Positions 1 through 64,000 of a stretch of 64,000 nt of DNA are shown one piece after another. The notes below the pieces were generated by a model. The model ran no database searches. It was given only the letters and a program-made list of their open reading frames with translations, and was not told the origin of the DNA. Within the stretch, counting starts at the first letter, position 1. Each line of letters opens with the position of its first letter. The DNA is from Leucoraja ocellata (lineage: Eukaryota): NCBI GenBank assembly GCA_036785375.1, contig JAWMAR010000226.1, forward strand, positions 2,852,001 to 2,916,000. Reading direction: 5' to 3'. A program made the position numbers and the translations under genes.

Positions 1-880
1 GTTGCCAGCAATACTGCCCTACTTCAATTTGCCATAATCAATGGGTGTGTGTCATTGCCTTGGGGCTCTAGTCTGGTCTAGAATTCCCTCTTGGTATCCC
101 TGATAGCTTTGCAACGGGTGTAAATAGATTTATTGTAGCACTCAAGGTTGGTTGACTTGGACGCTGTAGTTGATGGATTTCACCTGGGAGAGGACTTCAC
201 CGTTCTTCCATGGTTTCATGGGACTGTTCATGAGAACACTGATAGTGTCTTCTTTGACACACATTCCCATACATTTTTACTGATGAAGTCTGTGATGGCA
301 ATGGCATACACATCCAGGTTAGCCATGGGGTCCTTGAATATGAGTCAGTCCACCAACTCATAGTCACGAAAGATTTCAACTGTTTCCTCAAACCAGCACT
401 GCATAACTTTCTGTACCAGATCCTCCTCTTTGATGGTTTTTAGCAATAGCCAGAGGTGTTTGGTTGTCTGGTTGACAGGAGATGCGTTGATAGTTATTTG
501 GTACCCCACTCTTTTGAGTATGAGCTGATTGGAGTCCCGGTGTATTATGAACAAAGCTTTGGCGTATTTCATTTCAAGGTTATTGGCAACAGTGTGTAGT
601 GCAAGCTTAGCATCAGCTTGGGGTGGGATGTACTGTTGTCACAATAGCTGAACTGAATTCCCACGGCAGGTAGTAGGGATGACATTGCATCATACCATAT
701 TCCAGATCAATGGAACAGGAGCTCGCTGGGACCACCTCGAGACATTATTTAGGAAGCAGACCCCTCCACCCCTATCCATACCCGAGCATGCCATATGGAC
801 CCACCCGGTGTCATGACAAGCACTCGGGTTGGATGGCATTATGATGCCAGGTAGTGCGGGACAAGAAACCCATGGCACGA
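1..880 (-). mobile_element. Degenerate Rex1/Babar-type non-LTR retrotransposon fragment (APE endonuclease and linker region)
   Basis: Minus-strand translations give DRGGGVCFLNN..W (endonuclease motif) and VMQCWFEETVEIFRDYELVD...FKDPMANLDVYAIAITDFISK...KPW, homologous to the Rex1-like piece at 26148-26522. Many stops and frameshifts. Confidence 0.7.
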
Positions 881-1529: not shown

Positions 1530-1795
1530 CACGCACATATTTTTAGCAGAGGTTAATAGACAGAGATCTGGAGTAGATCGTTCATTCCGATTTCTTCTCT
1601 TACCTCGCAGTTACTTAGATCAATTGCAACAGCAGTCTGCAACGTACAGGAGATCAATTGATCCAGCTTTTAACACATCTGTGTCTAAAGTGCTAACATG
1701 GTCAGGAGGAAGAGGAACTGTTAGGACCTCCTCTGTTCTCTCTCTTTCCCACATTTGCAGTCATGTGCTTGCATACACAAAATCCTGTATATTTA

Positions 1796-2036
1796 GACAC
1801 ACAAAGCTGGAGTAACTCAGCGGGCCAGGCAGCATCTCTGGATAAAGGAATGGGTGACGTCTGAAGAAGGGTCTCGACCCGATAACTCACCCATTCCTTC
1901 CCTCCAGAGATGCTGCCCAAAGATCCCGTAGCGGAGCTCTGCTATAGGATATTTGATGCTGCCTGTCCCGCTAAGGTACTCCAGCCTTTTGTGTCTACCT
2001 TCGGTTTAAACCAGCATCTGCAGTTCCTTCCTGCAC
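1796..2036. mobile_element. Penelope-derived short element, inverted arrangement, with hammerhead-like core at 1861
   Basis: Arm gctggagtaactcagcgg...ggaatgggtgac is followed by ctgaagaagggtctcgacccga and the reverse-complement arm. Flanked by 14-bp direct repeat ATCCTGTATATTTA (1782-1795, 2037-2050). Confidence 0.75.
1918..1955. mobile_element. 38-bp palindromic mini-MITE (P- or hAT-like, 8-bp TSD)
   Basis: CAAAGATCCCGTAGCGGAG|CTCTGCTATAGGATATTTG has 15/19 self-complementary arms and is flanked by ATGCTGCC at 1910-1917 and 1956-1963, interrupting the host repeat. Confidence 0.7.
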
Positions 2037-3276
2037 ATCCTGTATATTTACTTGCACCTCTACACACAGTATAAACATGCATACACTGTTGTCTTTGTTA
2101 ACTCACTATTGTTTCTGAGCAAGCCTTCTGATTCGGTCACGCTGCAAAATGCTTCCTTTATTGTACTGCATTGACAGTTTTCAGAAGAGCAATTAATGCA
2201 GATGTTGTGTAATGAGTGGCAGCACTAGTTTCCAAAATGAGTGCCCTTTTGTTCTACGATACGCAAGGCTTAGGAACAATGTGGTATTCTGTAGAAGGAG
2301 TAAATACACGAAGGAAACTCCAGTGACAAGCTGAGGTCATACATCCTGTTTCAAAACACTTGGAGCATGTTCGGCAATTAAATGTCGGGGGCTCTACCAA
2401 GTAGATTACCCATCCAATTCCTGTTTTAGAAATTGTTTTGATTTAATCAGCATTAAAACTCGGTGCTAATGGAAATATCATAATAATTATTAAGAAAAAA
2501 GGGCACCACAAATAGAGGGATATTTGAGCCACTTATCAAATTGTCATGTTTCTTCACCTAGAAACGAGAGGATAATTTCACAACCTGCATCATTCCAACA
2601 TACGATAAATAGAAGTATCAAGGTGACTATTCTGTACATCTTTCCCTGGTCAATAGTTCAAAATAGAAGGGGTTCTGCTTAACGGATATATTTGATTTTA
2701 TCTTCTACGCATTTACCCAACCATTAAGCCCTTTTAATTATCCCAAAGAAAAACAAAACGAGCAGTCGGCATGAGTTCGATTAGACCTTTCTAGAGGCTG
2801 AACTGAATTTCACATGGAAGGCAATGTCATCTGACACATGTTCGCAGGTGGGTGAGTGGACACAGGAAATACGAGCCTTTCAACCCTGGATGATGCTCAG
2901 CCTGCAGGTTTCTCTGAATAGAAATTGTCATATTTAAAAAAAATCTTTACATCTGTAAAATAATAGGACAAGACGTGTTAAAATAAAAGCAATGGTGCAG
3001 GTTTCTTTTAGCTGTGCACAAGGAAGATGCAAACTTGTACACTAAATATGCAATTATGTAGAAAGAAGACAAAATGTTAAAGTCTAAAATATATTCTCCC
3101 TGCTGTTGTGATGCCTATGTGGAGAGCGAGAGCTGTACAGTGCGGTGTTCGCTGGGATACGGAACCATGTTTGATATTCAGTCACTGCTAGCCTAACTAA
3201 TCTCAGCAGAAGCAACGAGGACGTTGTACAAACTGATTGTGCTTTAGAGATGAAAAAACAGTTATAGTTCCCAGTC

Positions 3277-3455: not shown

Positions 3456-3959
3456 GAATTTTCAAAGTGGCAGAATCTTCACATGAAAAATCCATCCATT
3501 TGAAAAAAATTGGGTGAAAGATTGATTTTGACATTTGTCGGAGATGAATGGACATGATTGGCTGATATTAGAGGAAAGTTCCAACAGGCCCAGCTGTCAG
3601 GGGAATATACAAACAGAATCCAGTCTAACATTCAGATTGTAGAAACAGGGAACTGCAGATGCTGGTTTAGGAAAGAAGACTCAAGGTCCTGGAGTAATTC
3701 TGAAGATCAGGCAGCAACTCTGCAGAACATGGATAGGTGATGTTTTAGCCCAGGGCTAAAGAAGATGGGCATGATAAAGCCTGTCAGGTAATAGATGGAA
3801 ACACATGAGGGGGTTGATAGGCAGATAAGAGCCAGAGATGAAAAAGTATGAGACAAAAGGATTGAAGAATTGTGAAATGTGAAACTAGAGGAAGGAATGT
3901 AGGTGGAGGCGAGTATAGGGAATCTATATTTTCAATAATAGGTATATAAAAACATGAGG

Positions 3960-7310: not shown

Positions 7311-8611
7311 TCTTCAATTCTGTCTCCGAGAGGTTTGCATGTTCTCCCTGTGACCCCGTGGGTTTGCTCCAAATTCTCTGGTGTCCTCCCACTTCTCAAA
7401 AATGTCTGCATTAGAAGTTTAATTTTCTGCAGTAAATTGCATCGAATTGTCGGTCAGTGATAGCATATGCAAAGTACTGAAGGACATGTGCAGAGAATAA
7501 AAGGGAATTAGTGTAGGATTGGCTTTAATGGTAGTTTGGTGGGTGACATGGACTTAGTTCTGTCAAAGGACTTGTTTGCATGCCTTATGATTGAATGACT
7601 TCGATATTTCCCACCTACCATTGATTCAGTCCTGGTTATATCTTGCTGCACCCTGAGACATTTTGTCACCAGATGCCCCATACTACAGGTACATTACAAT
7701 AAAGATGGCACCCCTAGGTTTATGCCTAACATACTAATTTGTCCCCATTCCCCTCCATCTCTGTATCCCCCACTCTCCCAATTCCACAAGGAAGAACAAA
7801 GCCTTTCAATACTGGCAACACTAGGATATCTCCTCAAGATAAATGTTGATCAATGGTGTATCAATTGGTAGGTTAATTAGCCAGTGTTAATTGTATTGAA
7901 CTGGTGGATGATGGTAGAAATTTGCAATTTCAAATATGCCAAGATCATATCAGACCCTGAAATAGTAAGTATTTAATCTACGTTGGCAGCAAGTAAGCCC
8001 TCACATCTAGAAACATAGACACATAGAAATTAGGTGCAGGAGTAGGCCATTCGGCCCGTCGAGCCTGCACCGCCATTCAATATGATCATGGCTGATCATC
8101 CAACTCAGTAACTATTTACTGATCATCCAACTCCATCTATTTCTTGTAGCTCCTGAACTAGAACTGTCAGTATTCAAAGAAGCTCGTATCCAGTTACCTT
8201 TGCTATAGATTACTGGTTATACAGTCTACCCACTCCACCCCAGTTCATATCTCCAATCAATATTTCCCCAATATCCTCTCCCACCTCTACTACAACCCTA
8301 CATTTCCTTTATCCCTCACCAACCAAATGTCTGAATTTCCCCGACAAATGCAGGGGGCTGCACAATGACGATGAGGTACGGTTACTACCTTACAGCACTG
8401 GAGACCTGGGTTCGATCCTGACTACGGGTCCTGTCTGCGCAAACTTTGTATGTTCTCCCTGTGATCTTGTGACCTTTTTAGACGTAGGCTGGCCCCAGAT
8501 ATTCATCTCCATTCTATTTCTGCTGCAATGGCACACAAACCATAAATCTAATGAATGGATCCGCAGCAAACCCAATTCAGTGCAAACTGGGTTCAAGCAA
8601 GATTGTACCAT

Positions 8612-14296: not shown

Positions 14297-14431
14297 TTGT
14301 GTCGGAAAGAACTGAAAGATGCTGGTTTAAATCGAAGGTAGACACAAAATGCTGGAGTAACTCAGCGGGACAGGCAACATCTCCGGAGTGAAGGAATGGG
14401 TGACGTTTCGGGACGAGACCCTTCTTCAGAC
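14297..14431 (-). mobile_element. Penelope-derived short element, hammerhead-like core at 14402-14429
   Basis: Minus strand reads ctgaagaagggtctcgtcccgaaacgtc. Flanked by TATTATTTT (14288-14296, 14432-14440). Confidence 0.75.
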
Positions 14432-22010: not shown

Positions 22011-22881
22011 GCCACGAAATCCCTCAAATTTCCCCCACGTTTGTTGCCTTTACCCTGTTTACTTCTGCAATAGTATGAACAGCGAAGTTACAGCAGTGAA
22101 GCAGGAACTGCTATGAGGAAATCTCTCGTCATTGTACACTGGCGAGGACTGATGCCTCGACCAACAGCAATGGTGAATTGATTATTGTTTATGATGCTCA
22201 TACTGTTCAAATTCGCTTTGTAAATTTGTTACATTATATTGCAGTGAAGTATTTTCAAATATTCTGAAAAATATGTTGTATAAAATCATGTTCTTTATTA
22301 TTTTTTTTCGCCTTATTTGCGAAGGCATTTTACTTTAACACATCTAACCGGGCTGTTTCAAATTTGTTAATGTCATCTTGTTCTGAATTTTTATACTAAA
22401 AGAAGAGTTTACCATTCTACTTCCTAAATCCATCAAGGGGCTGGCAAAGAATGAGGTGGTTCATGGATGTTTTTTTGTTTGTATTTTACTGCTGCTCAAT
22501 CAACAAATGTAAATAGCAAAGGCACGGAAACACCAAAAGAATAATAAAAACATATCTATTCATGGATTCACTGTCTCTATTCTGTTTTGTCGTTTTTTGC
22601 ACAATCCGCAGGCATTGCCACTTTTCATTTCACTGCACATCTCGTATGCGTATGTGACAAATCAACTTGACTTGACTTGACTTCAGCGAAGTTCCAGCAG
22701 ATGAACAGGAACTCAACCCCGGAAGTGCATAGCTTGGCTATTTTTACTTCAAAATGTGGCCATGGTTGGTAGAAGCAGACATTTGACACTGGCTTCCCTC
22801 TGGTGAAGAAAAATATCCCTTCGCCAAAGTAGGTGCGACTTCTTTATAACATTAGCCGTACACACCTTTATCATGTTGTTA

Positions 22882-22972
22882 GACACGAAAAACTGGAGTA
22901 ACTCAGCGGGACAGGCAGCGTCTCTGGAGAGAAGGAATGGGTGACGTTTCGGGTCGAGACCCTTCTTCAGAC
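22882..22972 (-). mobile_element. 91-bp Penelope-derived element with intact hammerhead-like core (22943-22970)
   Basis: Minus strand CTGAAGA-A-GGGT-CTCG-ACCC-GAAAC-GTC. Flanked by 14-bp TSD TTATCATGTTGTTA (22868-22881, 22973-22986). Confidence 0.8.
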
Positions 22973-23420
22973 TTATCATGTTGTTATTTGGGAATCTACC
23001 GGCAACACTCTAAGATCACCTACCACTGACCCAGCCCGCCTATGGCCGTGTTTCTGCATTGGGAACGAGAATGTAGACTCGCGCCTCTGATTTAAGTTTA
23101 CACTGCATGATTTGACTCTCCTCGCTATAATTTATCGTGTTTTTCCCTCACTCTGCGACTTTCCTATAAACAATGACTCACACTGCAGTCTGCTATCACG
23201 GGCTTAGCCAGCCAGCCAATACCTTACCTAAGCAACTACGCTCCATCTGTGGCTGAGACAGGCAGTGCCAGCTAACTCTAACACCATGTGATGATCTCCA
23301 GTCCAAGTCTATCCTCATTAAGCATACGCACAAAGACACATACACACATATGCCACAGTCACGGGTGTCAGTGTATGACTTATTTTTTTCTGAAGCAGCC
23401 CATCGATTCCCCTTTTGATT

Positions 23421-23513
23421 CTGAAGAAGGGTTTCGGCCCGAAACGTTGCCTATTTCCTTCGCTCCATAGATGCTGCTGCACCCGCTGAGTTTCTCCAGC
23501 TTTTTTGTGTAAC
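23421..23513 (+). mobile_element. Penelope-derived element with hammerhead-like core (23421-23448)
   Basis: CTGAAGA-A-GGGT-TTCG-GCCC-GAAAC-GTT. Flanked by CCCCTTTTGATT (23409-23420, 23514-23525). Confidence 0.8.
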
Positions 23514-24559
23514 CCCCTTTTGATTCGTTTGCTACTCAACTGCATCAAAACATAATTGATAGCAGTTATTTGATCTACCAACAATCGTGCATGTGGGAGG
23601 AAAATGGAGATCCCGAAAAATCCTCCACTACATCTTTACACCCTGGACCAGCCTATTGAGATCTGCTTGGGCCTCACACCATAATGAATAAATAGTGAAT
23701 GGTTAAACAGCAGAGTGATCAGATGGGTGTCTAACTACGGCTGTGGACCTTTTGAGGGCAAGGATAGACTTTATTGATCGGCTGATCATTTTGTGCCTGT
23801 ATGTTTGAATGCACAATTCTTATATTTTACATTCAATAAGCAAACGGTGCTTTTGCACAGGAAAAAAAGTTAGATGTCAGTACCTACCGTCGTGTCCATG
23901 GGGCTTTGATCCCCACTGAGGGGGGATCTGGGGATTTCATTGCATCAATTAATTGTGTTTCATTCTTTGACACCTGCTCACCTCTGCAATCTACTCAGCC
24001 ACTTTTAAGAAACAAGGTAATGAAGGGAGTAAACTGGTTATTTTATTTGAATGAACAGATGGCCCAGGGAAAAATACAAATGTATAAGCAACAACCAATT
24101 CAGGACCATATTCACATCTCTTTTGCATCCCCTACCATCTGCTAAATAACTGAGATTAAAATTCCAGATTGTTGGCACCCAACACCAGAAATTATAATGC
24201 ATATTACATACAATATGAATACAAAGTGTAAATTTGCAAAGTGGATGGGTTTTTTCGGCGGGAACCGGTGAGTTCAACAGGTTTTGTAAATTGATGTCAT
24301 CCTAATTCTCTTACACGAGCAGAAGATGTTCAGATCACCCCACCCACAGTGCAAATGAGAAATGGCCATTCAGGAAAATGCATCCTGTAAACATTTCAGG
24401 ATTTCACACCTGCATTGAATATTGTACAAAGGAAATATGTGAACATCCAGGGCAGCACAGTGATACAGTTGCTGCCTTACACTGCCAGAGATCCGGGTTT
24501 GAGCCTGACTGTGGGTTTAGTCTGTATGGAGTTTATGTGGCTTTATTACTAACTATTCT

Positions 24560-30892: not shown

Positions 30893-32309
30893 AAGCTGGT
30901 TACCAAGCTCACGGAACTGGGTCTCTGCACATCCCTCTGCAATTGAATCCTCGACTTCCTCATCCACAGACCACAGTCTGTTCTAATTGGCTGAAATATT
31001 TCTCCCTCATTAACAATCAGTGCAGGAGCACCTCAAGGCTGCGTGCTCAGCCTCCTGCTCTACTCACTCTATACTCATGACTGTGTAGCCGGACACAGTG
31101 CAAATTCCATCTTCAAGTTCACCGATGACACCACCATTGTTGGACAAATTACAGATGGTGATGAGTCAGAGTATAGAAGTGAGATCGCCCAACTGACCAA
31201 AAGGTGCCAGCACAACAACCTGGCTCTCAATATCAGTAAAAACAATGAACTGATTGAGGACTTCCTTCCAGAGGAAGGATGAGGACCCACAATCCTGTTT
31301 ATATCAACAACTTCAAATTCCTGGGCATGTATATTTCTGAAGATCTTTCCTGGACTCAGCACACTGATGCAATTATAAATAAAGCACACCAACACCTCTA
31401 CTTCCTGAGAAGATTACAGAAATGTGGTATGTCAGAGAGGATTCTCTTGAACTTCTACAGGTGTACAGTAGAGATCTTATTGACTGGTTGCATCAAGGCC
31501 TGGTTCGGCAATTTGAATGCCCAAGAGAGAAAAAGACTGCACAAAGTTGTGAACACTGCCCAGTCCATCACCGGCTCAGACCTCCCCACCTTTGAAGGAA
31601 ATTATCGGAATCGCTACTTCAAAAAGGCAGCCAGCTTCATCAGAGACCCACACCATCCTGGTCACACACACATTTCACCCCTGCCATCGGGAAGAAGTTA
31701 CCGGAGCCTGAAAACTACATCGTCCAGGTTCAGAAACAGCTTCTTCCCTGCAGCCATCAGGTTATTAAACACTACAACCTCAAATAAGCTCTGAACTACA
31801 ATAGACTATTATTATTATTATTAGTAGTAGTAGTATTGCACTACTATCGTTTGTTTTTTGTGCGTTAGTATGTGTGCGTACGAGCGTGTGTGTACTTGTG
31901 AGTATGTGTTGTGAGTATGTGTATATATACACACTGAACTTTTGTGTGAACAAATTTTTCCTCTCACATTTGTTATATTGTTTACAGTGTACTATGTTTA
32001 CATATTCTGTTGTGCTGCAGCAAGTAAGTATGTTATTGTTCTACCTGGGACATATGACAATAAAACACTCTTGACTCTTGACACTTTATATAATAATGCC
32101 CAGATTTGTAGAGAAACTGGAATAGATTAATTAAAGTCACAGCCAAGCCTGAGGACAGATAATGAATATCACCACAACCTTGTTAAAACATCATCAATTT
32201 ACCAATATAGTTTCTAACTGCTGAACAGTATATCCAGGTTACACAATCTCGAAGGGTGGTCCATCTGAGTGAGGCACAGCCTATTGCAGGAATCTTTGAA
32301 GCAACCTTT

Positions 32310-32595
32310 CCTGTACATTTGGGAAACAGGACGGCCAGTTATTTTAGCTACTCGTAGCAAACCTAGACTCGGCAATCATCTCGCTGAACACTTGCGCTCA
32401 GTCTGCCTAGGCCACTGGAATCTCCCGGTTGCCAACCATTTCAATTCCCCTTCTCATTCCCATACTTATCTTTCTGCCCTGGGGCCCTTCCACTGGCAGT
32501 GAGGCCACACACTAATTGGAGGAACAGCACCTCATATTTTGCTTGAGTAGCTTACAACCCACAGAATAGCATAGAATTCTTTAATTTTAAGTAAC
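32310..32595 (+). mobile_element. Penelope-like element GIY-YIG endonuclease remnant
   Basis: YIWETG..RLGNHLAEHLRSV..LPVANHFNSPSHSHTYLSALG.., then EEQHLIF in a shifted frame; matches the vertebrate Penelope/Neptune C-terminal endonuclease. Confidence 0.8.
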
Positions 32596-32787
32596 TTAAT
32601 CTCATAATCCCACCTGGACAAATCCACCTTTGTCCTTTCAAGATTGCTGTATCTAGAAGTTCTTCTGTGTGCCACCATGAGTGTGGTTATCATACAGTGA
32701 TCAGTAACATAACTAGTATATCATGACCTTGCATTTCAACTAATGTCCTACAAGGAATGTGATCACAAATATTGACATGTCATGACA

Positions 32788-33843
32788 AGTAATGGTGGAT
32801 GGTTGTTTGTCAGGTTGGAGGCCAGTGACGAGTGGGGTGCCACAGGGATCTGTGTTGGGTCCACTGTTGTTTGTCATGTACATCAATGATTTGGATGATG
32901 GTGTGGTAAATTGGATTAGTAAGTATGCAGATGATACTAAGATAGGTGGGGTTGCGGGTAATGAAGTAGAGTTTCAAAGTCTACAGAGAGATTTATGCCA
33001 GTTGGAAGAGTGGGCTGAAAGATGGCAGATGGAATTTAATGCTGATAAGTGGGAGGTGCTACATCTTGGCAGGACAAATCAAAATAGGACGTACATGGTA
33101 AATGGTAGGGAATTGAAGAATGTAGGTGAACAGAGGGATCTGGGAATAACTGTGCACAGTTCCCTGAAAGTGGAATCTCATGTAGATAGGGTGGTAAAGA
33201 AAGCTTTTGGTGTGCTGGCCTTTATAAATCAGAGCATTGAGTATAGAAGTTGGGATGTAATGTTAAAATTGTACAAGGCATTGGTGAGGCCAATTCTGGA
33301 GTATGGTGTACAATTTTGGTTGCCTAATTATAGGAAGGATGTCAACAAAATAGAGAGAGTACAGAGGAGATTTACTAGAATGTTGCCTGGGTTTCAGCAA
33401 CTAAGTTACAGAGAAAGGTTGAACAAGTTAGGGCTTTATTCTTTGGAGCGCAGAAGGTTAAGGGGGGACGATAGAGGTTTTTAAAATGATGAGAGGGATA
33501 GACAGAGTTGACGTGGAAAAGCTTTTCCCACTGAGAGTAGGGAAGATTCAAACAAGGGGACATGACATGAGAATTAAGGGACTGAAGTTTAGGGGTAACA
33601 TGAGGGGGAACTTCTTTACTCAGAGAGTGGTAGCTGTGTGGAATGAGCTTCCAGTGAAGGTGGTGGAGGCAGGTTCGTTTTTATCATTTAAAAATAAATT
33701 GGATAGTTATATGGATGGGAAGGGAATGGAGGGTTATGGTCTGAGCGCAGGTATATGGGACTAGGGGAGATTATGTGTTCGGCACGGACTAGAAGGGTCG
33801 AGATGGCCTGTTTCCGTGCTGTAATTGTTATATGGTTATATGT
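32788..33843 (+). mobile_element. 5'-truncated, well-preserved CR1/HER1 LINE (RT core to 3' tail)
   Basis: ORF 32792-33484 SGVPQGSVLGPLLFVMYINDL..SKYADDTK, frameshift, then ORF 33486-33764 TRGH..FFTQRVVAVWNELP. Tail gttatatggttata. Confidence 0.95.
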
Positions 33844-37783: not shown

Positions 37784-37918
37784 ATCAGTCTGAAGAAGGG
37801 TTTTGGCCCGAAACGTCACCTATTTCCTTCCCTCCATTGATGCTGCTGCACCCGCTGAGTTTCTCCAGCATTTTTGTGTACCTTCGATTTTCCAGCATCT
37901 GCAGTTCCTTCTTGAACG
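37784..37918 (+). mobile_element. Penelope-derived element with hammerhead-like core (37790-37817)
   Basis: CTGAAGA-A-GGGT-TTTG-GCCC-GAAAC-GTC. 15-bp TSD CAGAGCTGTAGACTG (37769-37783, 37919-37933). Confidence 0.8.
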
Positions 37919-39392: not shown

Positions 39393-40855
39393 AGTGTGTA
39401 TGAAGGAACTGCAGATGCTGATTTAAACCGAAGATAGACACAAAATGCTGGAGTAACTCAGCGGGACAGGCAGCATCTCTGAAGATAAGGAATTTTCAAT
39501 TAGGTGATTGGTCAGTCTTATGATAGAGGACTACCCACTCAACATTTGGATATTAGATAAACTGTAAAGTTTATTAAGAGCTAACAGTGAGGGGTGTCAT
39601 TGGTAATTTACAATCTATGTTGTACTTTGACTGTCAAATGGGTTTATGTTGCTATAAAAACACACCCAAGGTGCTGGAGTAACTCAGCTGGCCATGTAGC
39701 ATCTCTTGTGAATAAAGACAGGGTGCGTTTCAGGTTGGGACCTTCTAAAGACCACAAATTAGCAATCTGGAGAATACATATGATGCTGGCTCTTGTCTCA
39801 ATGCCACACATCAGTCTGAAGAAGAGTCAGAAAAGAACCAAAACATTGCCTATTCATGTTCTCCAGAGATGCTGCCCGACTCACTGAGTTATTCCAGCAC
39901 TTTGTGTTTTTTTGGTAAACCAGCATCTGCAGTTCCTCATGTCTTTATTTTGCTACAGTTTGTTTAAGAGCTGCTATTTAAATGTAGGGTGAATTTCATA
40001 CCATTTGTTCCGCTACTGAAAATTCACAAGAAATTCATCAAAATGTAAGGCAAGTTTATGGATGTGGATGGTGCAGAATTGACACAGAGGAAATGTTCAA
40101 GCAGGATTTTCAGGAATGTCAAGTTCTTAGATGGGCCATACCAGATATGTTTAGTTTAGTTTATTGTCATGTGTATTGAGGTACAGTGAAAAGCTTTTGT
40201 TGCGTGCCAACCAGTCAGCAGAAAGACAATACATGATTACAATGGAGCCACCCGCAGTGTACAGATGTGTTTAGTGAAGGCAATTTCTTATTAATTTCCC
40301 TATAGATGGTGTATGAAAAATGGTGCGCGTCCCCTTCCCTCAACAGCTATTGCACATTAATGAGAGAAACAACTTCACAAAGTCAAAACACAAATTAGCA
40401 ACATGAAGAATCCATACTGGTTCTGGCTTATGTCACAATGCTGTACAGCAGCAAACGCAACACATGGAAATATGAATATAATTTTAAACTCTGCCCCTCT
40501 TTTATTTCTCAACCAGTGTAATGTCACAGCAACAGATCCAGGAATGCTGAAATAAAACAGTTTTCCACATTAAGAGAGCATGTTCTGTAAAACAAAACTA
40601 TTCTAAAACCAGACTTGAAGAAAGTAAACATTTTAGTGTGGCGGCTCCCAAGGGTCGCGCCATCATAGCTGTCGAACCCCTCGGCACGGGAGTGGTTCAG
40701 TCCGGAGGCGGCCCTTAACCAGAGGGTTTAAAGGCAGGGGTTTGGGTGCCATCTTTCTCTCGTTTGGACCTCCCTGCAACCGGGAGGAACATAATTAAAG
40801 GTGCCTCTCAAAATACTTGACTCCTCTCTTCCTTTTTGAGACCCACGCACCACAT

Positions 40856-40882: not shown

Positions 40883-42230
40883 ATGATGGAGAAAGAAGAA
40901 CGCCCTGCCTCCTCACAGGCCGGCCAGGCCGTGTCTCTGGACGCGGTCTCGGTAAAATTGCCCAACATCTGGACCACCCGGCCGCACATCTGGTTCCAGC
41001 AGGCGGAGGCCCAGTTCAACCTGCGGGGCATCACGGTCGATGCCACCCGCTTCTATTACCTGGTGGGGGCCCTCGACCAGGACACGGTCGAGAAGGTCAC
41101 GGACTTCCTCGCAGCCCCCCGGACACTGATAAATATCTCGGCCTTAAGGAGCTCCTGCTCCAGATTTATGGACTAAGTAGGATGGTGCTAGGCTGCTAGG
41201 ATCCTGCATATGGAGGACCTAGGCGACCGACGGCCATCTAGCCTCCTAAAGGAGATGGTGGCTCTCCTGGATGGGCACACGCCGTGCCTGATGTTCGAGT
41301 ACACCTACCTGCATCTGCTGCCGGCCTATATCCGTCTTCAGCTAACGGACGCCTCCTTCGCTGACATCAGGGCCCTCGGGAGGCGCGCCGACGCGCTGTG
41401 GATGGCGCGCCCTGATGACGTCAACGCGCTGGCCGTCAGCAGCCACGGGGCTCGCACCTGCATTCCGTGCCAGACGGCGAAAATCCAGCGCCATGTCCGT
41501 GCGCCTCTCCAGGAGTTTGGTCTACCTCACTGGCGATTTGACCTTCTCCACATGGACATTGTGGGGCCTCTCCCGCCATCCCGGGGCATCACCCACCTTC
41601 TCACAATGGTGGACCGCTTCACGCGGTGGCCGGAGGCCATTCCGCTGACCGATACTTCAACGGCTACGTGCGCTCGTGCGTTGTCCGAGCACTGGATTGC
41701 TCGCTTCGGGGTGCCGGCGCACATCTCCTCAGATCGGGGGCCACAGTTCACCTCCGAGCTGTGGTCAGCCATGGCTCGCTTGCTGTAGGTGCGGCTACAC
41801 CACACCACGGCTTACCACCCGCAGGCTAACGGTCTGGTGGAGAGGTTCCACCGGCAGCTAAAGGCGGCGCTGAAGGCGTGACTCTCCGGCCCAGACTGGA
41901 TGGACGAGTTGCCGTGGGTCATGCTGGGCATTCGGACTGCTCCTAAAGAGGACTTGGCCTCATCATCGGCGGAGCTCGTGTACGGGTCGCCACTCACGGT
42001 GCCCGGGGAGTTCGTGCCGTCGGCGCCGGGGCAGCAGGGAACGCCTCGAGGGCGCCCCCCTTCACGGCTCCCTCCGCCTGTCACTCCACCTGTCCTCCCG
42101 CCGGTCCCTCGACCTGTCCCTCCACCTATGCCTCCGCCAGCCCCACGATCTGCTGACTTCCGCACGCGGGCCGGCCGGGTCGTGCGCCCACCGGTGCGTT
42201 TCGTGCCTCGGGTTCTGGGTGGGGGGGTCC
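40883..42230 (+). pseudogene. Gypsy gag fused to integrase; protease, RT and RNase H absent; frameshifts and stops
   Basis: Gag: KLPNIW..WFQQAEAQFNLRGIT..LGDRRPSSLLKEM..ADALW. Then directly CIPCQ..HMDIVGPLP..VDRFTRWPEA..ISSDRGPQFTS..TTAYHPQANGLVERFHRQLK (DDE integrase). Confidence 0.9.
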
Positions 42231-43125: not shown

Positions 43126-43327
43126 GTCTGCAAAGTATTCTAACCAACCTTTCTCCTGTTATCCCACAACTTTGCGACACGTGGAAAGGGCAAACTCTGT
43201 TGATGATAGAAACCTCTTTACAAATGCACATTTGAACAGGAGATGTAGGAAACCAATCAGCATTGGAAAATTGGCTGTTTTTTCCTTTCCCTGGTGTAGA
43301 AATGCTGAGGCCAATTGTGATGCCCTG

Positions 43328-44044
43328 CTACAACTACAGCTACAGCCGTTTACAGCCACAGCTACAGCCACAGTTACAGCCACAGCCACAGCTACAGCCA
43401 CAGTTACAGTTACAGTTACAGCTACAACTACAACTACAGCTACAGCCGTTTACAGCCACAGCTACAGCCACAGTTACAGCCACAGCCACAGCCACAGCCA
43501 CAGTTACAGTTACAGTCACAGCTACAACTACAACTACAGCTACAGCCGTTTACAGCCACAGCTACAGTTACAGCCACAGCTACAGCCACAGCCACAGTTA
43601 CAGCTACAGCCACACCTACAGCCACACCTACAGTCACAGCCACAGCTACAGTTACAGCCACAGCCACAGCTACAGCCACAGTTACAGTTACAGTCACAGC
43701 TACAACTACAACTACAGCTACAGCCACAGCCACAGTTACAGCTACAGCCACACCTACAGCCACACCTACAGTTACAGCCACAGCCACAGCCACAGCCACA
43801 GCTACAGCCACAGCTACAGTTACAGCCACAGCCACAGCTACAGCCACAGCTACAGTTACAGTCACAGCTACAACTACAACTACAGCTACAGCCACAGCTA
43901 CAGTTACAGCTACAGTCACGGCTACAGTCACGGCTACAGCCACAGCCACAGCTACAGCTACAGCTACAGCTACAGTTACAGCCACAGTTACAGCTACAGC
44001 CACAGCTACAGCTACAGCTACAGCCACAGTTACAGCCACAGTTA
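43328..44044 (+). repeat. Compound hexamer tandem repeat (ACAGCT/ACAGCC/ACAGTT/ACAACT)n, ~717 bp
   Basis: Period-6 array with variant units and recurring higher-order blocks (…ctacagccgtttacagcc… three times). Confidence 0.95.
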
Positions 44045-44589
44045 AGATCAGCTAATTGACCACAGACCAGACATTAGAGGTGAGGCTTTCCTGTTGTGTG
44101 TGGCCTGCTACAAGTGCATTAACCCACTGATCCATGAGGGGACACACAGTGAAACCACATCAAAAGATAACTATCATTTACATGAGGACGGAATTCAGTG
44201 GGTGGCGCTGTTGAGCACAGCTGCCCCGCCTGCAGCTGTTCGTCCATTCATCCTTTTAAAAAATGTTTAGTCCGTGAAAAGTTTTGTTTTGGAGGTCTTT
44301 TAGTCTTTTTATGTGGGGGGTGGGGTAGGGGGAAACTGTTTTTCTCAGTCACTACCTGGTCGATGAATGTGTCTTTTCTCTGAACCACATCTTCGCCCCC
44401 TCCTCGCGGCCTAACATCTGGATTGGCGCGGCCTTTCCTGCCGGTGACCGGCCAGAGCTTCAGCTTCAGCAGCAGCGCAGCACTGAAGTACCATCGCGGA
44501 ACGGAGCGATGCCTTACAGGGGTCGCCGTGTTGGAGCTCCGGAGTGCTGGGATTGCCGACCTCAACACCGTAGAGCTGTGGTCTGCGGA

Positions 44590-45303
44590 AAAATATTGGA
44601 AAGACATTTTTGATACTATTTATGTAGTCTTATGCCCCTGTCCCACTTAGGAAACCTGAACGGAAACCTCTGGAGACTTTGCGCCCCACCCAAGGTTTCC
44701 GTGCGGTTCCCGGAGGTTTTTGTCAGTCTCCCTACCTGCTTCCACTACCTGCAACCTCCGGCAACCACCTGGAACCTCTGGGAACCACACGGAACCCTTG
44801 GGTGGGGCGCAAAGTCTCCAGAGGTTTCCGTTCAGGTTTCCCAAGTGGGACAGGGGCATTAGGTATCGATTTATAACCTCATCCTATTACTGCAATATTT
44901 GGGCTACCAATGTTAGATTTTATTCATTTGTCCCGCTCCGCCCATCAGCTGATTGTTTTTACCACACTAGTCACCAGAAGATCTATTTTATTTAAATGGA
45001 AAGACTCCAACCCTCCGACCACACTCCAGTGGTACTCTGAAACGATATCATGTTTAAATTTAGAAAAAATCTGGAGTGACATTGTTAAACCCTTGGTTAA
45101 ATTTGATAAGACTTGGGGAAAATTTATTCAACTCTTTTATACAACATAAATTGTTCCCAAGCCAACCGTTATAAAAAATATTTTACCTCTATATGGTGGA
45201 ACGGACTTGATGACAAACAGATTTAAATTGTTGAAATTCTCAGTTCAGATTCTGTTTTGCTTTGCTTTGCATAAAAATACAAAAATAAAAATAAATAAAA
45301 AAG
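44590..45303 (+). mobile_element. L1-type LINE 3' fragment with A-rich tail, interrupted by a MITE
   Basis: KYWKDIFDTIYVVL|GIDL..PITAIFG..RRSILFKWKDSNPPTTLQWYSETISCLNLEKI..KFDKTWGKFI is fish-type L1 ORF2 C-terminus. Tail aaaaataaaaataaataaaaaa. Confidence 0.8.
44633..44858. mobile_element. Palindromic MITE, PIF/Harbinger-like (TTA TSD)
   Basis: Near-perfect fold-back TGCCCCTGTCCCACTT...AAGTGGGACAGGGGCA. TTA at 44630-44632 and 44859-44861. Removing it restores the L1 frame. Confidence 0.85.
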
Positions 45304-47787: not shown

Positions 47788-49739
47788 TGTTTAATCACAG
47801 GCTTCTGGTGATGTCAGAGACTAACATTGTTTATTTCTGCCAAGAAATTAAATTTGTATATTTGAGCAAAATTGGCGCTGGTGTTTTTCTTTAATTATGT
47901 CCTCTTCTGAAGGAGCAGACTTGTAATCTCAAACATTTCTCACTGGTGCCAGCAACTCTCCGATATCTTATCTAACTGTGGTGAGCCTGATTTTGTCTTT
48001 GTTTGGTGCACTAGATAGCAATCAGAAGCTAAACCAGAAGCCAATGTTTTCCTTACACAGTCCAAGGTTGCAGCATAGCTAATTATATCGCAACTGATAT
48101 CTGCTCTCCCCATAAAGAGTGTAGAATGAATGTGGGATGTGTTAGTCCGTCTGCGATTTTGCGTTGAGCATTTTATTGACCCATGGAGCCATGATGCAAG
48201 TGGTATTTGTAAGCAGTAACCTGACAATCAGGTTTTGACTGACCCACTGTGATAACTTGTCAGTACATAACGTAAAGAATATTGTTGCATATCATCCAAA
48301 CAGATCAGTTGAAGGACAGGACCAAACAGTGGCAAGATCAAAGTGGCCGCAACATTGGTCTGGATGTTTATCAGAATGAGTCAAGGTTAGGAAGGAAAAG
48401 TGATTAAGTTTTATCCACAAAGAGGTTAATAGATTAAAAAAATTGCTGAAATGCACTTATTACATAACATAGAACAGTACAGAACAGCATCAAGCCCTTC
48501 CACCCACAATCTTTGTGCCAAACATTATGCCTAACTGAATTGATCTCATTTGCCTGCACATGATCCATATCCCACTATTCCCTGCACTTCCATGTATATA
48601 TCTAAAAGCCTTATAAACAACACTATTGTATCTGCCCCTGCCACCCTCTGCGTAGAAAGATTCTCCTGGACATCATTAAACATTCTCCCTCTCAGCTTAG
48701 ACTTCCAGGCGGAAATTGGATATTTTCACCTGGGAAAAAGGTTTTGAATCTCTACCACATCTATGCCTCTGATAATTGTATATACTTTTATCAAGGTTCC
48801 CCTCAACCTCCAACATTCCAGTCCAAGTCTATCTAACCTCTCCCTGTAGCTGAAAGCCTCTAATCTAGGCAACATTCTGGCAAAACTCAGCGGCTGAGGC
48901 AGCATCTATGGAGCGAAGGAAATAGGCAACGTTTCGGCTCAAAACTCTTCTTCGGACTGATACGAGGGTGGGCGGGGGGGGGGGGGGGGGGGGGGGCGTT
49001 AAACAGAAGAGCAAGGTAGGGTTACAATGGCCTTCAAAATAACCTTTTTAAATATATACATTTCTTTCGATTTATTTAACTTCTGTGTGATAAATGTGCT
49101 TGTCCAAATATAAATTCCTATGGACTGCCTTGCCTATGGATAAATGCACTGCTGGGTGAATTTCATGTCTTATTGTGCCTTGAAATCTCTCAGATTACAA
49201 TTAGGTGACCAATGAAAAGAATTTAAGACTTATAAAGCCATTATGTCCTTCGAGCCATTGTTAATTTTACCTAATTTCATAGAAACCTGCACATCCAGCA
49301 CATGTCTATTTCCTTTGCTGTCAGAGTGGATTTTAACCCCATTCACCTGGCAGAAATTAGGTCAAAATGTAGGTAAAACCCTTTTTGTTGACTTCCTCTC
49401 AGATCTTGTATTTGCATTATTTATATAGTTTCTTGCAGGAAGCTTAAATACTTCCCCAGAGCAGTAGCATGTTTGTACAGTGGTCATTGGTAGCAGGAGA
49501 GGATTATAATATGCCGAGGAATGAAAGACTTGAATGTGCAAAGGCCCTTTCATCTCCGGATGTCCCAAAACACTTCCAGCCTCAGAATGTGGGACAACTA
49601 ACTAAAATTATGATGCTGAAGAATTGATTATTTTTAGTCTTTGGAGCACCTTATTATAGAGAGCTGCCTCTATAATAAGGTGCATAATGCACATTTACAA
49701 CTGAGATGGATAGATTTCTAATGCCAAGGAATCACAGGT

Positions 49740-54297: not shown

Positions 54298-54509
54298 GCA
54301 CAAAATGTGTAGGAAGGAACTGCAGATGCTGGCTTAAACTGAAGATAGACACAAAAAGCTGGAATAACTCAGTGGGCCAGGCAGCATCTCTGGAGAGATG
54401 GAATGGGTGACTCTCAGTCTGAAGAAAGGTCTAGACCATAAATGCCTCCCATTCCTTCTCTCCAGAGATGCTGCCTGTCCACTGAGTTACTCCAACTTTT
54501 TTGTGTCCA
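54298..54509. mobile_element. Penelope-derived inverted-arm element inserted in an older SINE tail
   Basis: Two inverted arms around a degenerate core (ctgaagaaaggtctagacc). 10-bp TSD TCCTACAGAG (54288-54297, 54510-54519). Confidence 0.75.
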
Positions 54510-55671
54510 TCCTACAGAGTGACAGTGAGTACACTACCTAAAGTACTGCAGTGGCTGTAAAGAGTTTTGTTTTGTAAATGCTATATAAATGCAATTATTT
54601 ATTTGTGCAGAATTGTTTTGAATGGCTCTTGGCTCCGTAATAAAATCCAGGTCTGTTGAAGACATGAAGACATTGGCGTCTGATGCGTGATTTCTCTCTC
54701 ATTTCATGTGATCAGAATATCAGGGTCTCTGCCTCATTAGTGACTTTTACTGAACAGAATTCTTGACATCCATGGGACATAATTTGATTTGTTTTGTGAC
54801 GTGTGTCTGTTACTATTATGGAGGTACTACCTTAAGGACGATGTGTTGCCAGCATTTTGAAAGTCACTGCCACATGGCTGTGAATGGCACCATTCTTTGT
54901 GCCATTTACTAAAGGTATGAGAGCTATAATAAACAGTTGTATTTCTTTGATGTTCCATGTCTACCTGGTGATTATGTGACTGTGATGCTCTGCCCAACAC
55001 AACCCATATTCTACATCTCTAATTCAAATGAATATCATTAAAAAAAAAACAATGCAGCAGAGGCATCTGCCCTGACTAAATCCATTTAAACCAAGGTGCA
55101 TTCCTGACATTTACATTGATGGATTTAAGGATTTGGGAGAGAGATTAGTAACTGTCTTATATTTCTCTCTGATGATGCTTTTGAGAGAAAGGGTGTCACC
55201 TGACAAAGGAAGAATTAGGCCAATATCATTTACTTTTAGACCATATTCACAGAAAGGAACAGAGAAAATAACAGTTTTGTATGTGGAAAAGATAGCCACA
55301 AAGTGTTGGAGTAACTCAGCGGGCCAGGCAGCATCTCGGGAGAAAAAGAATGGATGAAGTTTCAGGACGGAACCCTTCTTCATAATGTAAATATGGGATG
55401 GGCTGGGGGAGGGTGAAGAGCTAAAGGCCAGAACAGATCAGGATCAATCAGGGCCAGCCACAAAGAACCTCGGACAGGGAGTTGCCTGGTAGGTCCTTTG
55501 TTGGCTCATGAAGGTGTGATCTCAAGAGAGACAGTGGAGATCAGTGGAACAATTGTCATTGCCCAGAGCTAAATAAAGTGCAAGAGAAATAGCAGCCTTG
55601 GTAGATTTATTCATCTTGGATCTAGATTGTCCACAAGATTTGGGCAGATGTGGGCCATTACCTGACTACAG

Positions 55672-55900: not shown

Positions 55901-56564
55901 CCAAAATTAAACATTGCAACAATTCTTCTACACGCATTCATGGATTTGGCAGAAGATGATCATTGCAATTTTACTTTGCGTCAAATGTCTGCTGGATCAC
56001 AATTGCAATCTCATGTTTATTACATGATCCTGATTTAAACTGTAAAGCAGACATAAATAAGAAGAGAAAAGAACACAGCTGTCAAAAGATTGGCTGCTTC
56101 TCATTTTCATACCATTTCTTATTCATTTTTGTAGCAATTTCAACCTAAACAGCAATAACCTTTTTCTTGTTGCATTAGAGCCTTGCCAAAAACACTTGTC
56201 TCGCATCCAACAGGAAGTGTGCTATCAAGTGGGCGACAGTCAAATTGTGTTTCTTTAGATAAGTAATATGAATGCAACTGAAGGCAAGTGTTCCTGAAAG
56301 GTAATGAGCCAAAGGTTCAGAAAGAGCAGCCATGATATTTTAAACTGTCAATAACTACACAAGAATATAAAGTATGGTGAGGGGCTGCTTCCTCAAACTA
56401 GAGAGCCCCATACAAGGAACATGCCTGGCCCTCGCTATGCTTGTCTTTCTGTCAGCTATGAGGAACAGTCCTTGTTACAAGCCTATTTGGGCAGTCTTCC
56501 CCCCTCCCCAATGCAGCTCTTTCTCATTGACAACAGCATTGGCGTTGCCTTCTGCATTAGAGTC

Positions 56565-58367
56565 ATAGAAGGGGAACAAGGAAATGTCAGAAAAGTTGAA
56601 CAGGTACTTTGGTTTTGTCTTCACTAAGGAAGACACTAAAAATCTCCCAGATGTACTAGAGGACAGAGGTTCTACGGTGACAGAGGAACTGAAATAAATT
56701 TGCATTAGGTGAGAAATAGCATTGGGTAGACTGATGGAACTGAAGGCTGATAATTCCCCAGGGCCTGATGGTCTGCATCCCAGGGTACTCAAGGAGGTGG
56801 GTCTAGAAATCTTGGACGCATTGGTGATCATTTTCCAATGTTCTACAGATTCAGGATCAGTTCCTGTGGATTGGAGGGTAGCTAATGTTATACCACTTTT
56901 CAAGAAAGGAGCGAGAGAGAAAACAGAATTATAGACCAGTTAGTCTGACATCAGTGGTGGGGAAGATGCTGGAGTCAATTATTAAAGAAGTAATAACGGT
57001 GCACTTAGATAGCAGTAAAAGGATTGGTCCAAGTCAGCATGGATTTATGAAGGGGAAATCCCTCTTGACTAATCTTCTGGAATTTTTTGAGGATGTGACA
57101 TGTAAAATGGATGAAGGGGAGCCAGTGGATGTGGATGTAGTGTATCTGGACTTTCAAAAAGCCTTTGGTAAGGTCCCAAACAGGAGATTAGTGGCAAAAT
57201 TAAAGCACGGTATTGGAGGTGGGGTATTGACATGGATAATGAATTGGTTGGCAGACAGGAAACAAAGAGTAGGAATAAACGGGTCCCTGTCAGAATGGCA
57301 GGCAGTGGTGAGCGGAGTGCCGCAAGGCTCGGTGCTGGGGCCGCAACTATTTACAATATATACTAATGATTTCGATGATGGGATTAAAAGTAACACTAGC
57401 AAATTTGCAGATGACACATAGCTGGGTGGCAGTGTGAATTGCGAAGAGGATGCTAGGAGGTTGTAGGGTGACTTGGACAGGTTGAGTGAGTGGGCAGATG
57501 CATGGCAGATGCAGTATAATGTATATAAATGTGAGGTTATCCAATTTGGCGGCAAGAACAAGGAGGCAGATTATTATGTCAATGGTGTCAGATTGAGAAA
57601 AGGGGAGATACAATGAGACCTGGGTGTCCTTACACACCAGTCGCTGAAAGTAAACATGCAGCTACAGTAGGCAGTGTAGAAAGCTAATGGTATGTTGGCC
57701 TCCATAATGTGAGAATTTGAGTATAGGTGTAAAGAGGTCCTTCTGCAGTTGTACAGGGCCCTGGTGAGACCATATCTGGAGTATTGTGTGCAGTTTTGGT
57801 CTTCTAATTTGAGGAAGGGCATCCTCACTATTGAGGCAGTGCAGCATAGGTTCATGAGGTTAATCCCTAGGATGGCGAGACTGTCATTTGAGAAAAGATT
57901 GGAAAGACTGGGCTTGTATTCACTGGAATTTAGAAGGATGAGAGAGGATCTTATAGAAACATATAAAATCATAAAAGGACTGGACAAGCTAGATGCAGGA
58001 AACATGTTCTAAATGTTGGGGGAGTCCAGAACCAGAGGTCACAGTCTAAGAATAAAGGGGAAGCCATTTAAAACTGAGATGAGAAAAAAGGTTTTCACCC
58101 AGAGAGTTGTGAATTTGTGGAATTCTCTGCCACAAAATGCAGTAGAGGCCAATTCACTGGATGAATTTAAATGAGTTTGAATGAATTGAATTTGGGTGAA
58201 TTTGGATGTTAGATAGAGCTCTAGGGGGCTAGCGGAATCAAGGGATATGGGAGGAAGGCAGGCACGGGTTACTAATTGTGGGTGATCAGCCATGATCACA
58301 ATGAATGGTGGTGCTGGCTCGAAGGGCCAAATGGCCTCCTCCTGCACCTATTTTCTATGTTTCTATT
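56565..58367 (+). mobile_element. CR1/HER1 LINE, 1.8 kb, full RT domain with stops and frameshifts
   Basis: KADNSPGPDGLHPRVLKE..DWRVANVIPLFKKG..NYRPVSLTSVVGK..YLDFQKAF..SGVPQGSVLGP..SKFADDT..LVRPYLEYCVQFW. Tail ttctatgtttctat. Confidence 0.95.
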
Positions 58368-59114
58368 TTTCTAAAATGACTTAACTGCGTGTCACATATA
58401 TTATGATATGTATTCGAGCTGGAGTAAAAGCCGGCTCCTCTCGTTGTCCGACAACGATGTATTTGTCTTGTGTTCTGGTGTTGATGGCGCTCGCAGGTCA
58501 CCACAACTCAGCATCAGGTTTTGCCAAATAAATTGCTCGTGGAATGGAGACTTGTTTTCCCAGCATCCTTGGCAGAGGAGAACCCGCTCTATTTTCGGTA
58601 CGCACTCTAGTGGGATGCTGGACTGGATGGGGTGGAAGATTTTACCCAGTTCATGTAACATCAGCCAGCTGCCATGAGATTGCAAACAGCAAATGCTCAC
58701 GGTGTAAAATATAGCGGAGAGCCCTTTCTTTCAATAGTGAGTGGGTTCGCTAACTGAACTGGCAACTGTCTCGGAGCGCCGAAGATAGCGGAGGTAACTG
58801 GTATCACAGATTTCTGGCGAGGTCCGTGAAGTTAACGAAACGCCACTGGACAGATAGAATTTTAAGTTACAGGTGCAAAGTTGGTGGCCGGAAAATAATG
58901 TTAATTGAAAGTAGTTATGATTTGAAACTCACTTTTGGAAGAATTGATTAAACTTAATCAAACTGGCACTTGTGGGAAATCTTGAATATGAGAAGGGTTC
59001 CGGCCCTAATCGTCACCTGCCCATTCCCTCCACAGATGCTGCCTGACCCGCTGAGTATCTCGAGCACTTTGTGTTTTAGGAGCGATGAATTGTACTACTC
59101 GGAGCTGGCATTGA

Positions 59115-59362
59115 AACATAGAAACATAGACACATAGAAAATAGGTGCTGGAGTAGGCCATTCGAGCCTGCACCGCCATTCAATATGATCATGGCTGATC
59201 ATCCAACTCAGTATCCTGTACCTGCCTTCTCTCCATACCCCCTGATCCCTTTAGCCACAAGGGCCACGTCTAACTCCCTCTTAAATATAGCCAATGAACT
59301 GGCCTCAACTACCTTCTGTGGCAGAGAATTCCAGAGATTCACCACTCTCTGTGTGAAAAATG
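59115..59362 (-). mobile_element. CR1 3' end
   Basis: gaaacatagaaacatag tail and reverse complement of WNSLP..EA. Confidence 0.85.
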
Positions 59363-61465: not shown

Positions 61466-61592
61466 CTGAAGAAGGGTCTCGACCCGAAACGTCGCCTATT
61501 ACCTTCGCTCCATAGATGCTGCCTCACCTGCTGAGTTTCTCCAGCATTTTTGTCTGCCTTCGATGTTCCAGCATCTGCAGTTCCTTCTCAAA
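61466..61592 (+). mobile_element. Penelope-derived element with intact hammerhead-like core (61466-61493)
   Basis: CTGAAGA-A-GGGT-CTCG-ACCC-GAAAC-GTC. Flanked by CATTACAGT (61457-61465, 61593-61601). Confidence 0.8.
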
Positions 61593-61670
61593 CATTACAG
61601 TTCTCGCGGTCACTGTAAATTGCATTTGTACTTATCTCAGTAAAAGGAACTCGAAACCGTTCTAGCTGAG

Positions 61671-61743
61671 GGTTCCATAGTGTAGTGGTTATCACGTCTG
61701 CTTTACACGCAGAAGGTCCTGGGTTCGAGCCCCAGTGGAACCA
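61671..61743 (+). tRNA. trnV-TAC: tRNA-Val (anticodon TAC), intronless
   Basis: 73-nt cloverleaf: acceptor GGTTCCA/TGGAACC + A, anticodon stem TCTGC/GCAGA with TAC at 61704-61706, T arm CTGGG-TTCGAGC-CCCAG, intact A and B boxes. Confidence 0.98.
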
Positions 61744-63275: not shown

Positions 63276-63402
63276 ATTTGTGTAGGAAGGAACTGCAGAT
63301 GCTGGTTTAAACCGAAGGAGGGTCTCGACCCGAAACATCACGCATTCCTTCTCTCCAGAGAAGCGGCCTTTCCCGCTGAGTTACTCCAGCATGTTGTGCC
63401 TA
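63276..63402. mobile_element. Penelope-derived inverted-arm element
   Basis: gggtctcgacccgaaacatc core remnant. 10-bp TSD TCCTCGTGGT (63266-63275, 63403-63412). Confidence 0.75.
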
Positions 63403-64000
63403 TCCTCGTGGTGTTTTATTTATTTCCAAGGTACATGATGTAACATCGCTCCGCAATAAATTTATTAGTAACAAAAATATTGCTTAAGTTTGGTAGTGGT
63501 ATTTTGCTCAGTGTATCGACATTTGTGATTACATGGTTTGTGTTAATAACTACATATGATCGGCAATATAAAAACACTAAATAATCCAATTGGCTGTGCC
63601 GCTCTTATTGAATCCTAATTTAGAACAGTGTCTCTTACACTTGTGGATATCCTGGCGAAAAGAGCTAGATTTATTTTACCACACGAGGCACCTCATTTCC
63701 TTTTATTTCTTCCTTCAATTACATAAAGTTTCCCCTCTGTCTAATTTAACTACTTTTTATGCTGCTGTCTTCTAACTGCTCTTTGAATATATTAAAAATG
63801 TTATTCATAATTCTTTATTGATGGTCAGAAATAAGATTAGGCTAGTCCATTACATGCACGTTGTACTCTCCTTCCAAAATAACTCCAGGTTCAAAGCAAA
63901 CACTGATAAAACGTGCAATTATTTCCCAAAAATAAATGTTATTCAGAATTAAAAAATATATAAAACAATAACTGTACAAAAACTCTTCCAACATACTCAG

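Follow-up and report, generated by a model that had tools for sequence, protein, structure and literature searches.

A high-copy hammerhead-bearing repeat in the skate Leucoraja ocellata, probably derived from the terminal repeats of a Penelope-like retrotransposon

The window analysed here is a 64,000-nt stretch of contig JAWMAR010000226.1 from Leucoraja ocellata (assembly GCA_036785375.1, positions 2,852,001 to 2,916,000, forward strand). An nhmmer profile built from window copies found 37 segments of a 90-140 nt repeat, which together cover 3,642 bases (5.7% of the window) and correspond to 28 insertions after merging of adjacent arms. The focal insertion is a 91-nt insert between the two copies of a 14-bp target-site duplication (TSD), and the bounds given for it in the initial annotation, 22868-22986, are exactly those of the duplication pair. 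The main copies and related features are listed in Table 1.

Table 1. Copies of the hammerhead-bearing repeat and relics of Penelope-like element (PLE) coding sequence in the window.
Feature	Position	Strand	Details
Focal insertion	22882..22972	-	Copy with short 3' end (~+92 from core C3), CTCG-loop subfamily
Minimal hammerhead of focal copy	22943..22970	-	CTGAAGA, extra A, GGGT-CTCG-ACCC, GAAA, C-G, T-C; predicted cut between 22943 and 22942
Pyrimidine tract of focal copy	22926-22942	-	Complementary to GAAGAAGGG; equivalents in other copies
Focal TSD, left copy	22868..22881	+	14 bp, exact
Focal TSD, right copy	22973..22986	+	First base common to the AGT start of the element
Intact-core copy, second subfamily	23421..23511	+	TTCG loop, U-G pair in stem II; 13-bp TSD
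Intact-core copy	37784..37918	+	Tail of ~40 nt; 15-bp TSD
Intact-core copy	61466..61593	+	With tail; 9-bp TSD; directly behind older degenerate copy 61313-61450
Near-intact copy	14300..14431	-	With tail; one U-U mismatch in stem II; 13-bp TSD (1 mismatch)
Head-to-head pair	1793..2040		Minus-strand arm followed by tailed plus-strand arm; both within a single 14-bp TSD
Head-to-head pair	39657..39950		Inside 12-bp TSD (1 mismatch)
Head-to-head pair	54302..54510		Joined at short shared stretch GTGAC; 10-bp TSD
Head-to-head pair	63277..63404		Inside 14-bp TSD (1 mismatch)
Broken PLE GIY-YIG endonuclease C-terminus relic	32299..32563	+	tblastn with the open reading frame of contig L002, E 0.007
Broken PLE reverse-transcriptase relic	56427..56555	+	Match to P0020 residues 2-42, E 9e-7

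The exact gapped pattern of the motif occurred five times in the window and the 27-mer motif with up to three mismatches twelve times, against an expectation of 0 for both from 100 shuffles. A reversed-window control with an earlier profile gave one match, at E 0.55, and with none in the shuffles a chance origin of the motif was ruled out. The five exact matches are the five sites that the initial annotation had called intact or nearly so, and its degenerate sites (1861, 3357, 7180, 11888, 21504, 48929-48955, 54419, 59842, 60204 and 63312) were all among the nhmmer matches. Its figure of about 20 recurrences also holds, since the hammerhead region was aligned in 20 of the 37 segments, a count that leaves out five partly deleted or overlap-affected segments. 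The window density corresponds to ~580 segments and ~60 intact motifs per Mb. At a multi-gigabase genome size this would extrapolate to about a million segments genome-wide; summed contig depth in run X1 (~4e7 over the focal element against ~25-35 over unique flank, where depth is not a copy number) agrees with the window density in order of magnitude. The five best copies are 82-93% identical to one another, and the segments form several subfamily groupings with tree support of at most 0.9.

Counted from core C3 as position 0, the unit is composed of (C)AGT, CTGAAGA, an extra A, GGGT-loop-RCCC, GAAA, C, G, T and H, with the predicted cut site after +27. On the 3' side of the cut site follow a pyrimidine tract and ~50 conserved bases to ~+92, and many copies continue for ~40 bases more, to ~+133. 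The bases before C3 are TCAGT in many copies, a sequence that resembles an initiator. Seven of the 37 segments passed the core test (C3 U4 G5 A6 N7 G8 A9, G12 A13 A14 A15.1, U16.1 H17). Only four of them (22970, 23421, 37790 and 61466) keep the core, the 4-bp stem II and ACGT together, and so carry the full motif; 14429, also placed among the intact or nearly intact sites by the initial annotation, keeps three of the four stem II pairs, and 11888 and 60204 are without the palindrome. The extra A after A9 is present in 19 of 20 copies. Stem II carries G10.1-C11.1, and 87% of its cells are paired across 18 copies; it does keep its pairing as annotated, though the changes seen there (U-A to U-G) alter one side of a pair and never both, and the CCCG-loop variant is restricted to copies with a damaged core. 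The ACGT palindrome (15.1-16.1), which replaces helix III, is found in all five best copies; in run X1, 12-18% of the summed depth of contigs shows decay at the CpG of the palindrome. Helix I, described before as 2 bp of GT/AC, is so in 22970, 14429 and 37790; it is GT/GC in 61466 and a single pair in 23421.

The earlier assignment to the minimal type-I hammerhead motif of PLEs agrees with the extra base after A9, the palindrome and the 2-bp helix I described in PMC4209133, and judged by every sequence feature tested the repeats are the PLE minimal type-I hammerhead. The consensus published there is CUGANGAH-G...C-GAAA-N-palindrome-NUH with a helix I of 2-5 bp. The skate copies share with the metazoan PLE terminal repeats (pLTRs) of that survey the CUGANGAH core, a G-C pair closing stem II, the extra base after A9, GAAA-C-G-U-H without helix III, and a 2-bp helix I as in its Drosophila virilis and Culex rows; they are likewise mostly solo, with some opposite-strand pairs. 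Stem II has 4 bp here against 7-8 bp in the Schistosoma type.

The core columns were 91.2% conserved (196/215) and the downstream columns 84.2% (989/1174) in 20 copies, after five segments with deletions or palindromic overlap had been dropped beforehand (Fisher p 0.008, with non-independent cells; column permutation p 0.033). The excess of core conservation looked for in the initial annotation is thus present, but it is only slight, because two downstream blocks, chosen afterwards, reach 90.2%. Covariation in 18 copies did not exceed chance, with 258 of 500 shuffles pairing as well, in a test that has little power among closely related, decaying copies. Neither the entire window nor 22860-23520 matched a hammerhead among the Rfam covariance models at E<=10. 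RNAalifold found no consensus structure for 18 copies. The contig variant table from public runs is blank at 22947-22973, but known loop variants are also absent from it and some differences were left out of its counts, which makes it no gauge of core conservation. Contigs covered 22800-22853 in none of the four runs, a gap that carries no weight as evidence. In the second subfamily, contigs of two DNA-type runs jump back ~30-34 bases at 23427-23461; these are short tandem duplications that span stem II through the cut site and do not repeat CTGAAG.

By energies that take no account of the tertiary core, the hammerhead fold of the focal copy is predicted at -3.9 kcal/mol, against -10.1 kcal/mol for a hairpin that buries the core by pairing GAAGAAGGG with the pyrimidine tract beyond the cut site. 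For a double hammerhead the values are -6.1 against -23.3 kcal/mol for the competing fold, and folding z-scores are not significant (-1.0 to 0.5). The inactive hairpin is thus predicted to outcompete the ribozyme fold. To judge from the sequences, self-cleavage activity is doubtful for nearly all copies, because 33 of the 37 segments are without the full motif, intact cores never follow one another in tandem and the cut site coincides with no copy end. An active tandem dimer within the window was ruled out: copies on one strand abut only at 61313/61466, and there the core of the first is damaged. By eye, the pyrimidine tract resembles a splice acceptor, with the tract, CAG or TAG, and then ATG at most two bases on.

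A TSD score of at least 9 (9-15 bp) was obtained for 10 of the 28 insertions, compared with 1.7% of random pairs, and a clear TSD was absent from 18 of the 28. The TSD bounds were placed by hand, and the TSD at 50493 is offset from the homology ends. The 3' ends of the 37 segments fell mainly at +84..101 (16) and +124..146 (14), with four between and three shorter. These two classes are ~40 nt apart and, by their spacing, correspond to the optional PLE tail (30-40 nt). Six head-to-head pairs with tails outward were found, four of them inside a single TSD. The 5' ends were at -12..+3, the 5' edge of the ribozyme, in 18 of the 37 segments and downstream of it in 16, and three were further upstream; the profile model extends only to -26 upstream of core C3. 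The 400-nt upstream flanks of 26 copies, compared all against all, had almost nothing in common beyond the element and overlapping flanks, the exceptions being a 34-nt match of 21504 with 3357 and two other short matches. Loose ends of public contigs at the 5' edge agree only at 0.31-0.42. Upstream of an old copy, a pyrimidine-rich stretch at 3756-3890 (minus strand) may be 3' UTR sequence kept from the source element; it occurs only once in the window.

At the cut site (+26..30), we found 0 of 37 5' ends and 0 of 37 3' ends. We therefore rejected templates with an end at this position, and the RNA from which the window copies were made was probably uncut. The many TSD-bounded stubs offer a cheap test of where reverse transcription starts and stops, and of cut RNA as template. 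The copies are supported as high-copy retrotransposition products with PLE hallmarks. They may form a separate non-coding family mobilised in trans by Penelope, as was proposed earlier, but ordinary 5'-truncated PLE insertions would look the same, with scattered 5' ends, two classes of 3' end and some copies head to head.

Neither of the two PLE relics in the window is adjoined by a hammerhead copy, and the endonuclease relic stops before any hammerhead. The latter matched 24 library proteins. Five of these have a Pfam GIY-YIG match below threshold, and P0003 and P0008, at the least, seem spurious; among six looked up, the named relatives were from little skate (two) and whale shark (two). Protein searches with this relic and with the open frame of copy 14429 gave no match at E<=0.001. 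On metagenome contig L002 (10-2902, plus strand), the same core with a GGGT/ACCC stem II lies directly before an uninterrupted 961-aa open reading frame with a reverse-transcriptase match (E 5.6e-6) and a GIY-YIG match (E 0.017), both under Pfam cut-offs. By eye, the hammerhead of L002 has one helix I pair only. Core and stem II are also the same in contig L001, again from a metagenome, where a PLE-type reverse-transcriptase fragment lies ~1.5 kb away on the other strand. Both contigs match the family model around the core only (L002 E 0.003), and they are therefore evidence of the motif class, not of the skate repeat family. A Cys-rich linker in the relatives P0006 and L002 suggests the Neptune/Nematis type. 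Residues 2-13 of P0005, upstream of its GIY-YIG fragment, match the element translation (E 5.5e-6; best reversed control 0.001), and P0004 has an inverted match to the element at E 0.006, no better than controls. We rejected these peptide adjacencies as proof of linkage, because at ~1 copy per 2 kb chance adjacency is possible and P0004 is at control level. The exact core pattern had 0 matches in the viral contigs searched, the downstream pattern 0 in the prokaryote genomes searched, and P0006 no relative among viral contigs. A direct linkage of the copies to a full PLE in the L. ocellata genome is what we infer.

Considering the minimal hammerhead motif, the two 3' end sites ~40 nt apart and the frequent TSDs, we think that the repeats are probably terminal-repeat stubs (pLTR plus optional tail) of a Penelope-like retrotransposon, copied from uncut RNA and now mostly dead. 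The GIY-YIG endonuclease would nick the target DNA, and reverse transcription would begin internally at ~+92 or ~+133 from core C3, cross the uncleaved ribozyme and usually stop at ~-3, most likely at the RNA 5' end with the start at the initiator-like TCAGT; this transcription-start reading draws only on the promoter consensus and the clustering of 5' ends. Extension of both nicked strands would give a head-to-head pair inside one TSD. The ribozyme would be relevant only in the tandem transcript of the source element, as a weak dimeric or protein-assisted cutter, and would decay in the stubs. These steps have parallels in an anole element, for which PMC11167929 describes internal initiation of reverse transcription at two sites that define the tail, nicking and extension of both strands, unprocessed RNA as the main substrate, and a hammerhead that cuts only with protein present. 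A 30-40 bp tail and inverted 5'-truncated partners are described for PLEs (PMC8557442), as are 8-10 bp TSDs around inverted pLTRs and an initiator-like motif in a pLTR (PMC3846280). The anole element, PAc of Anolis carolinensis, resembles the skate repeat in its two 3' end classes, its both-strand extension and a hammerhead left uncut in insertions; PAc, however, belongs to the Poseidon clade and has a tested protein-assisted hammerhead (PMC11167929), whereas the relatives of the skate repeat have the linker that suggests Neptune/Nematis.

A separate short element would account for the sharp 5' edge just as well. The repeat may be a self-sufficient non-autonomous mini-retroposon, whose unit is expressed from a promoter within it and copied again in trans by PLE proteins, with stubs making further stubs; we regard this as possible but unlikely. 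Besides the preferred edge shared by 18 of 37 segments, the 37 segments against two unlinked coding relics and the several weakly grouped subfamilies (tree support at most 0.9) speak for it, although subfamilies are also expected from autonomous source lineages. Its 5' ends are not fixed, with 16 of 37 inside the unit and three further upstream, and in the alignment, inspected by eye, neither a common deletion nor a captured flank identified any copies as made from other copies. The literature describes non-autonomous PLE derivatives and, for Penelope of D. virilis, an internal promoter that contains RGACGTGY; pLTRs can also act in trans. The ACGT of the skate repeat matches RGACGTGY only in part, with uncertain spacing, and the promoter match was found post hoc. 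A stronger form, in which the DNA of the hammerhead also serves as an RNA polymerase II promoter inside the unit and each 90-140 nt copy is a full start-to-tail unit re-copied by PLE proteins, seems quite unlikely. It would place the initiator TCAGT three bases before the core and ACGT at ~+27-30 in the ~million copies, with helix I held to 2-3 bp by an RNA start at AGU. Should transcription indeed start at the 5' edge and so overlap the ribozyme, the stubs would amount to a self-promoting retroposon of very small size, and they would supply cryptic promoters in large number. In Fig. S3 of PMC4209133, UCAGU or UCAUU can be seen by eye within ~15 bases upstream of the core in 10 of the 56 rows.

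Under the same PLE origin, the 5' edge might instead be a hot spot of reverse-transcriptase stalling and joining, with a stop at the hairpin around the hammerhead in a long 3' UTR and microhomology joining. The predicted hairpin of GAAGAAGGG with the pyrimidine tract, the 1-4 bases common at the 5' junction in 22970, 14429, 23421 and 61466, and the three copies reaching 15-25 nt upstream are in its favour, but most stops lie just past the hairpin and not before it, and with the non-significant z-scores we find this explanation very unlikely. Lastly, an actively self-cleaving non-LTR retrozyme, spreading via circular RNA, would explain the type-I hammerhead and the very high copy number, and a circular template would let the reverse transcriptase cross the cut site. 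The retrozymes described in PMC7229834 and 10.64898/2026.07.22.740005, which include a chondrichthyan case, are also non-coding, with a type-I hammerhead, a proposed PLE-pLTR origin and solo monomers. They are, however, defined by tandem arrays, with a canonical hammerhead and circular RNA in PMC7229834, and their units are ~220-350 nt. The skate copies are shorter, dispersed and TSD-flanked, with no tandem array of intact units within the window, a minimal hammerhead with a 2-bp helix I, and a hammerhead fold predicted unfavourable (see above). By the tandem criterion the skate repeat is not a retrozyme, and this explanation is extremely improbable.

The stubs of a Penelope-like element thus remain our preferred reading, and PLE terminal repeats carrying minimal hammerheads are a known association, which the occurrence in a cartilaginous fish and the high density extend. 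The 56 rows of Fig. S3 in PMC4209133 contain no cartilaginous fish, and four intact motifs per 64 kb are far above the ~4,000 (coelacanth) and ~9,000 (Xenopus) per genome given there. In the literature found on hammerheads with Penelope, sharks and Leucoraja, there was no paper on the skate repeat family; the chondrichthyan family tables of bioRxiv 10.64898/2026.07.22.740005 may bear on it. The role of the PLE hammerhead is described as still open (PMC8557442, PMC11167929).

The window also contains a tRNA gene at 61671-61743 (plus strand, Rfam 70.5 bits) between two repeat copies, with anticodon TAC (Val) by eye. An inverted repeat at 44629-44862, with 90-nt arms 94% complementary and a 54-nt spacer, is MITE-like, and its MIR820 match is below the gathering score. 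A hexamer-based tandem array occupies 43316-44149. A young ~100-nt repeat family, 88-97% alike and unrelated to the hammerhead unit, is found at 8013-8110, 58279-58373, 59156-59255 and 60591-60730. An integrase core fragment at 41192-41788 (plus strand, Pfam rve, E 1e-13) is probably an LTR-retrotransposon relic, and LINE-type reverse-transcriptase fragments (Pfam RVT_1) at 32786-33484 and 56882-57421 (plus strand) each follow shortly after a PLE relic.
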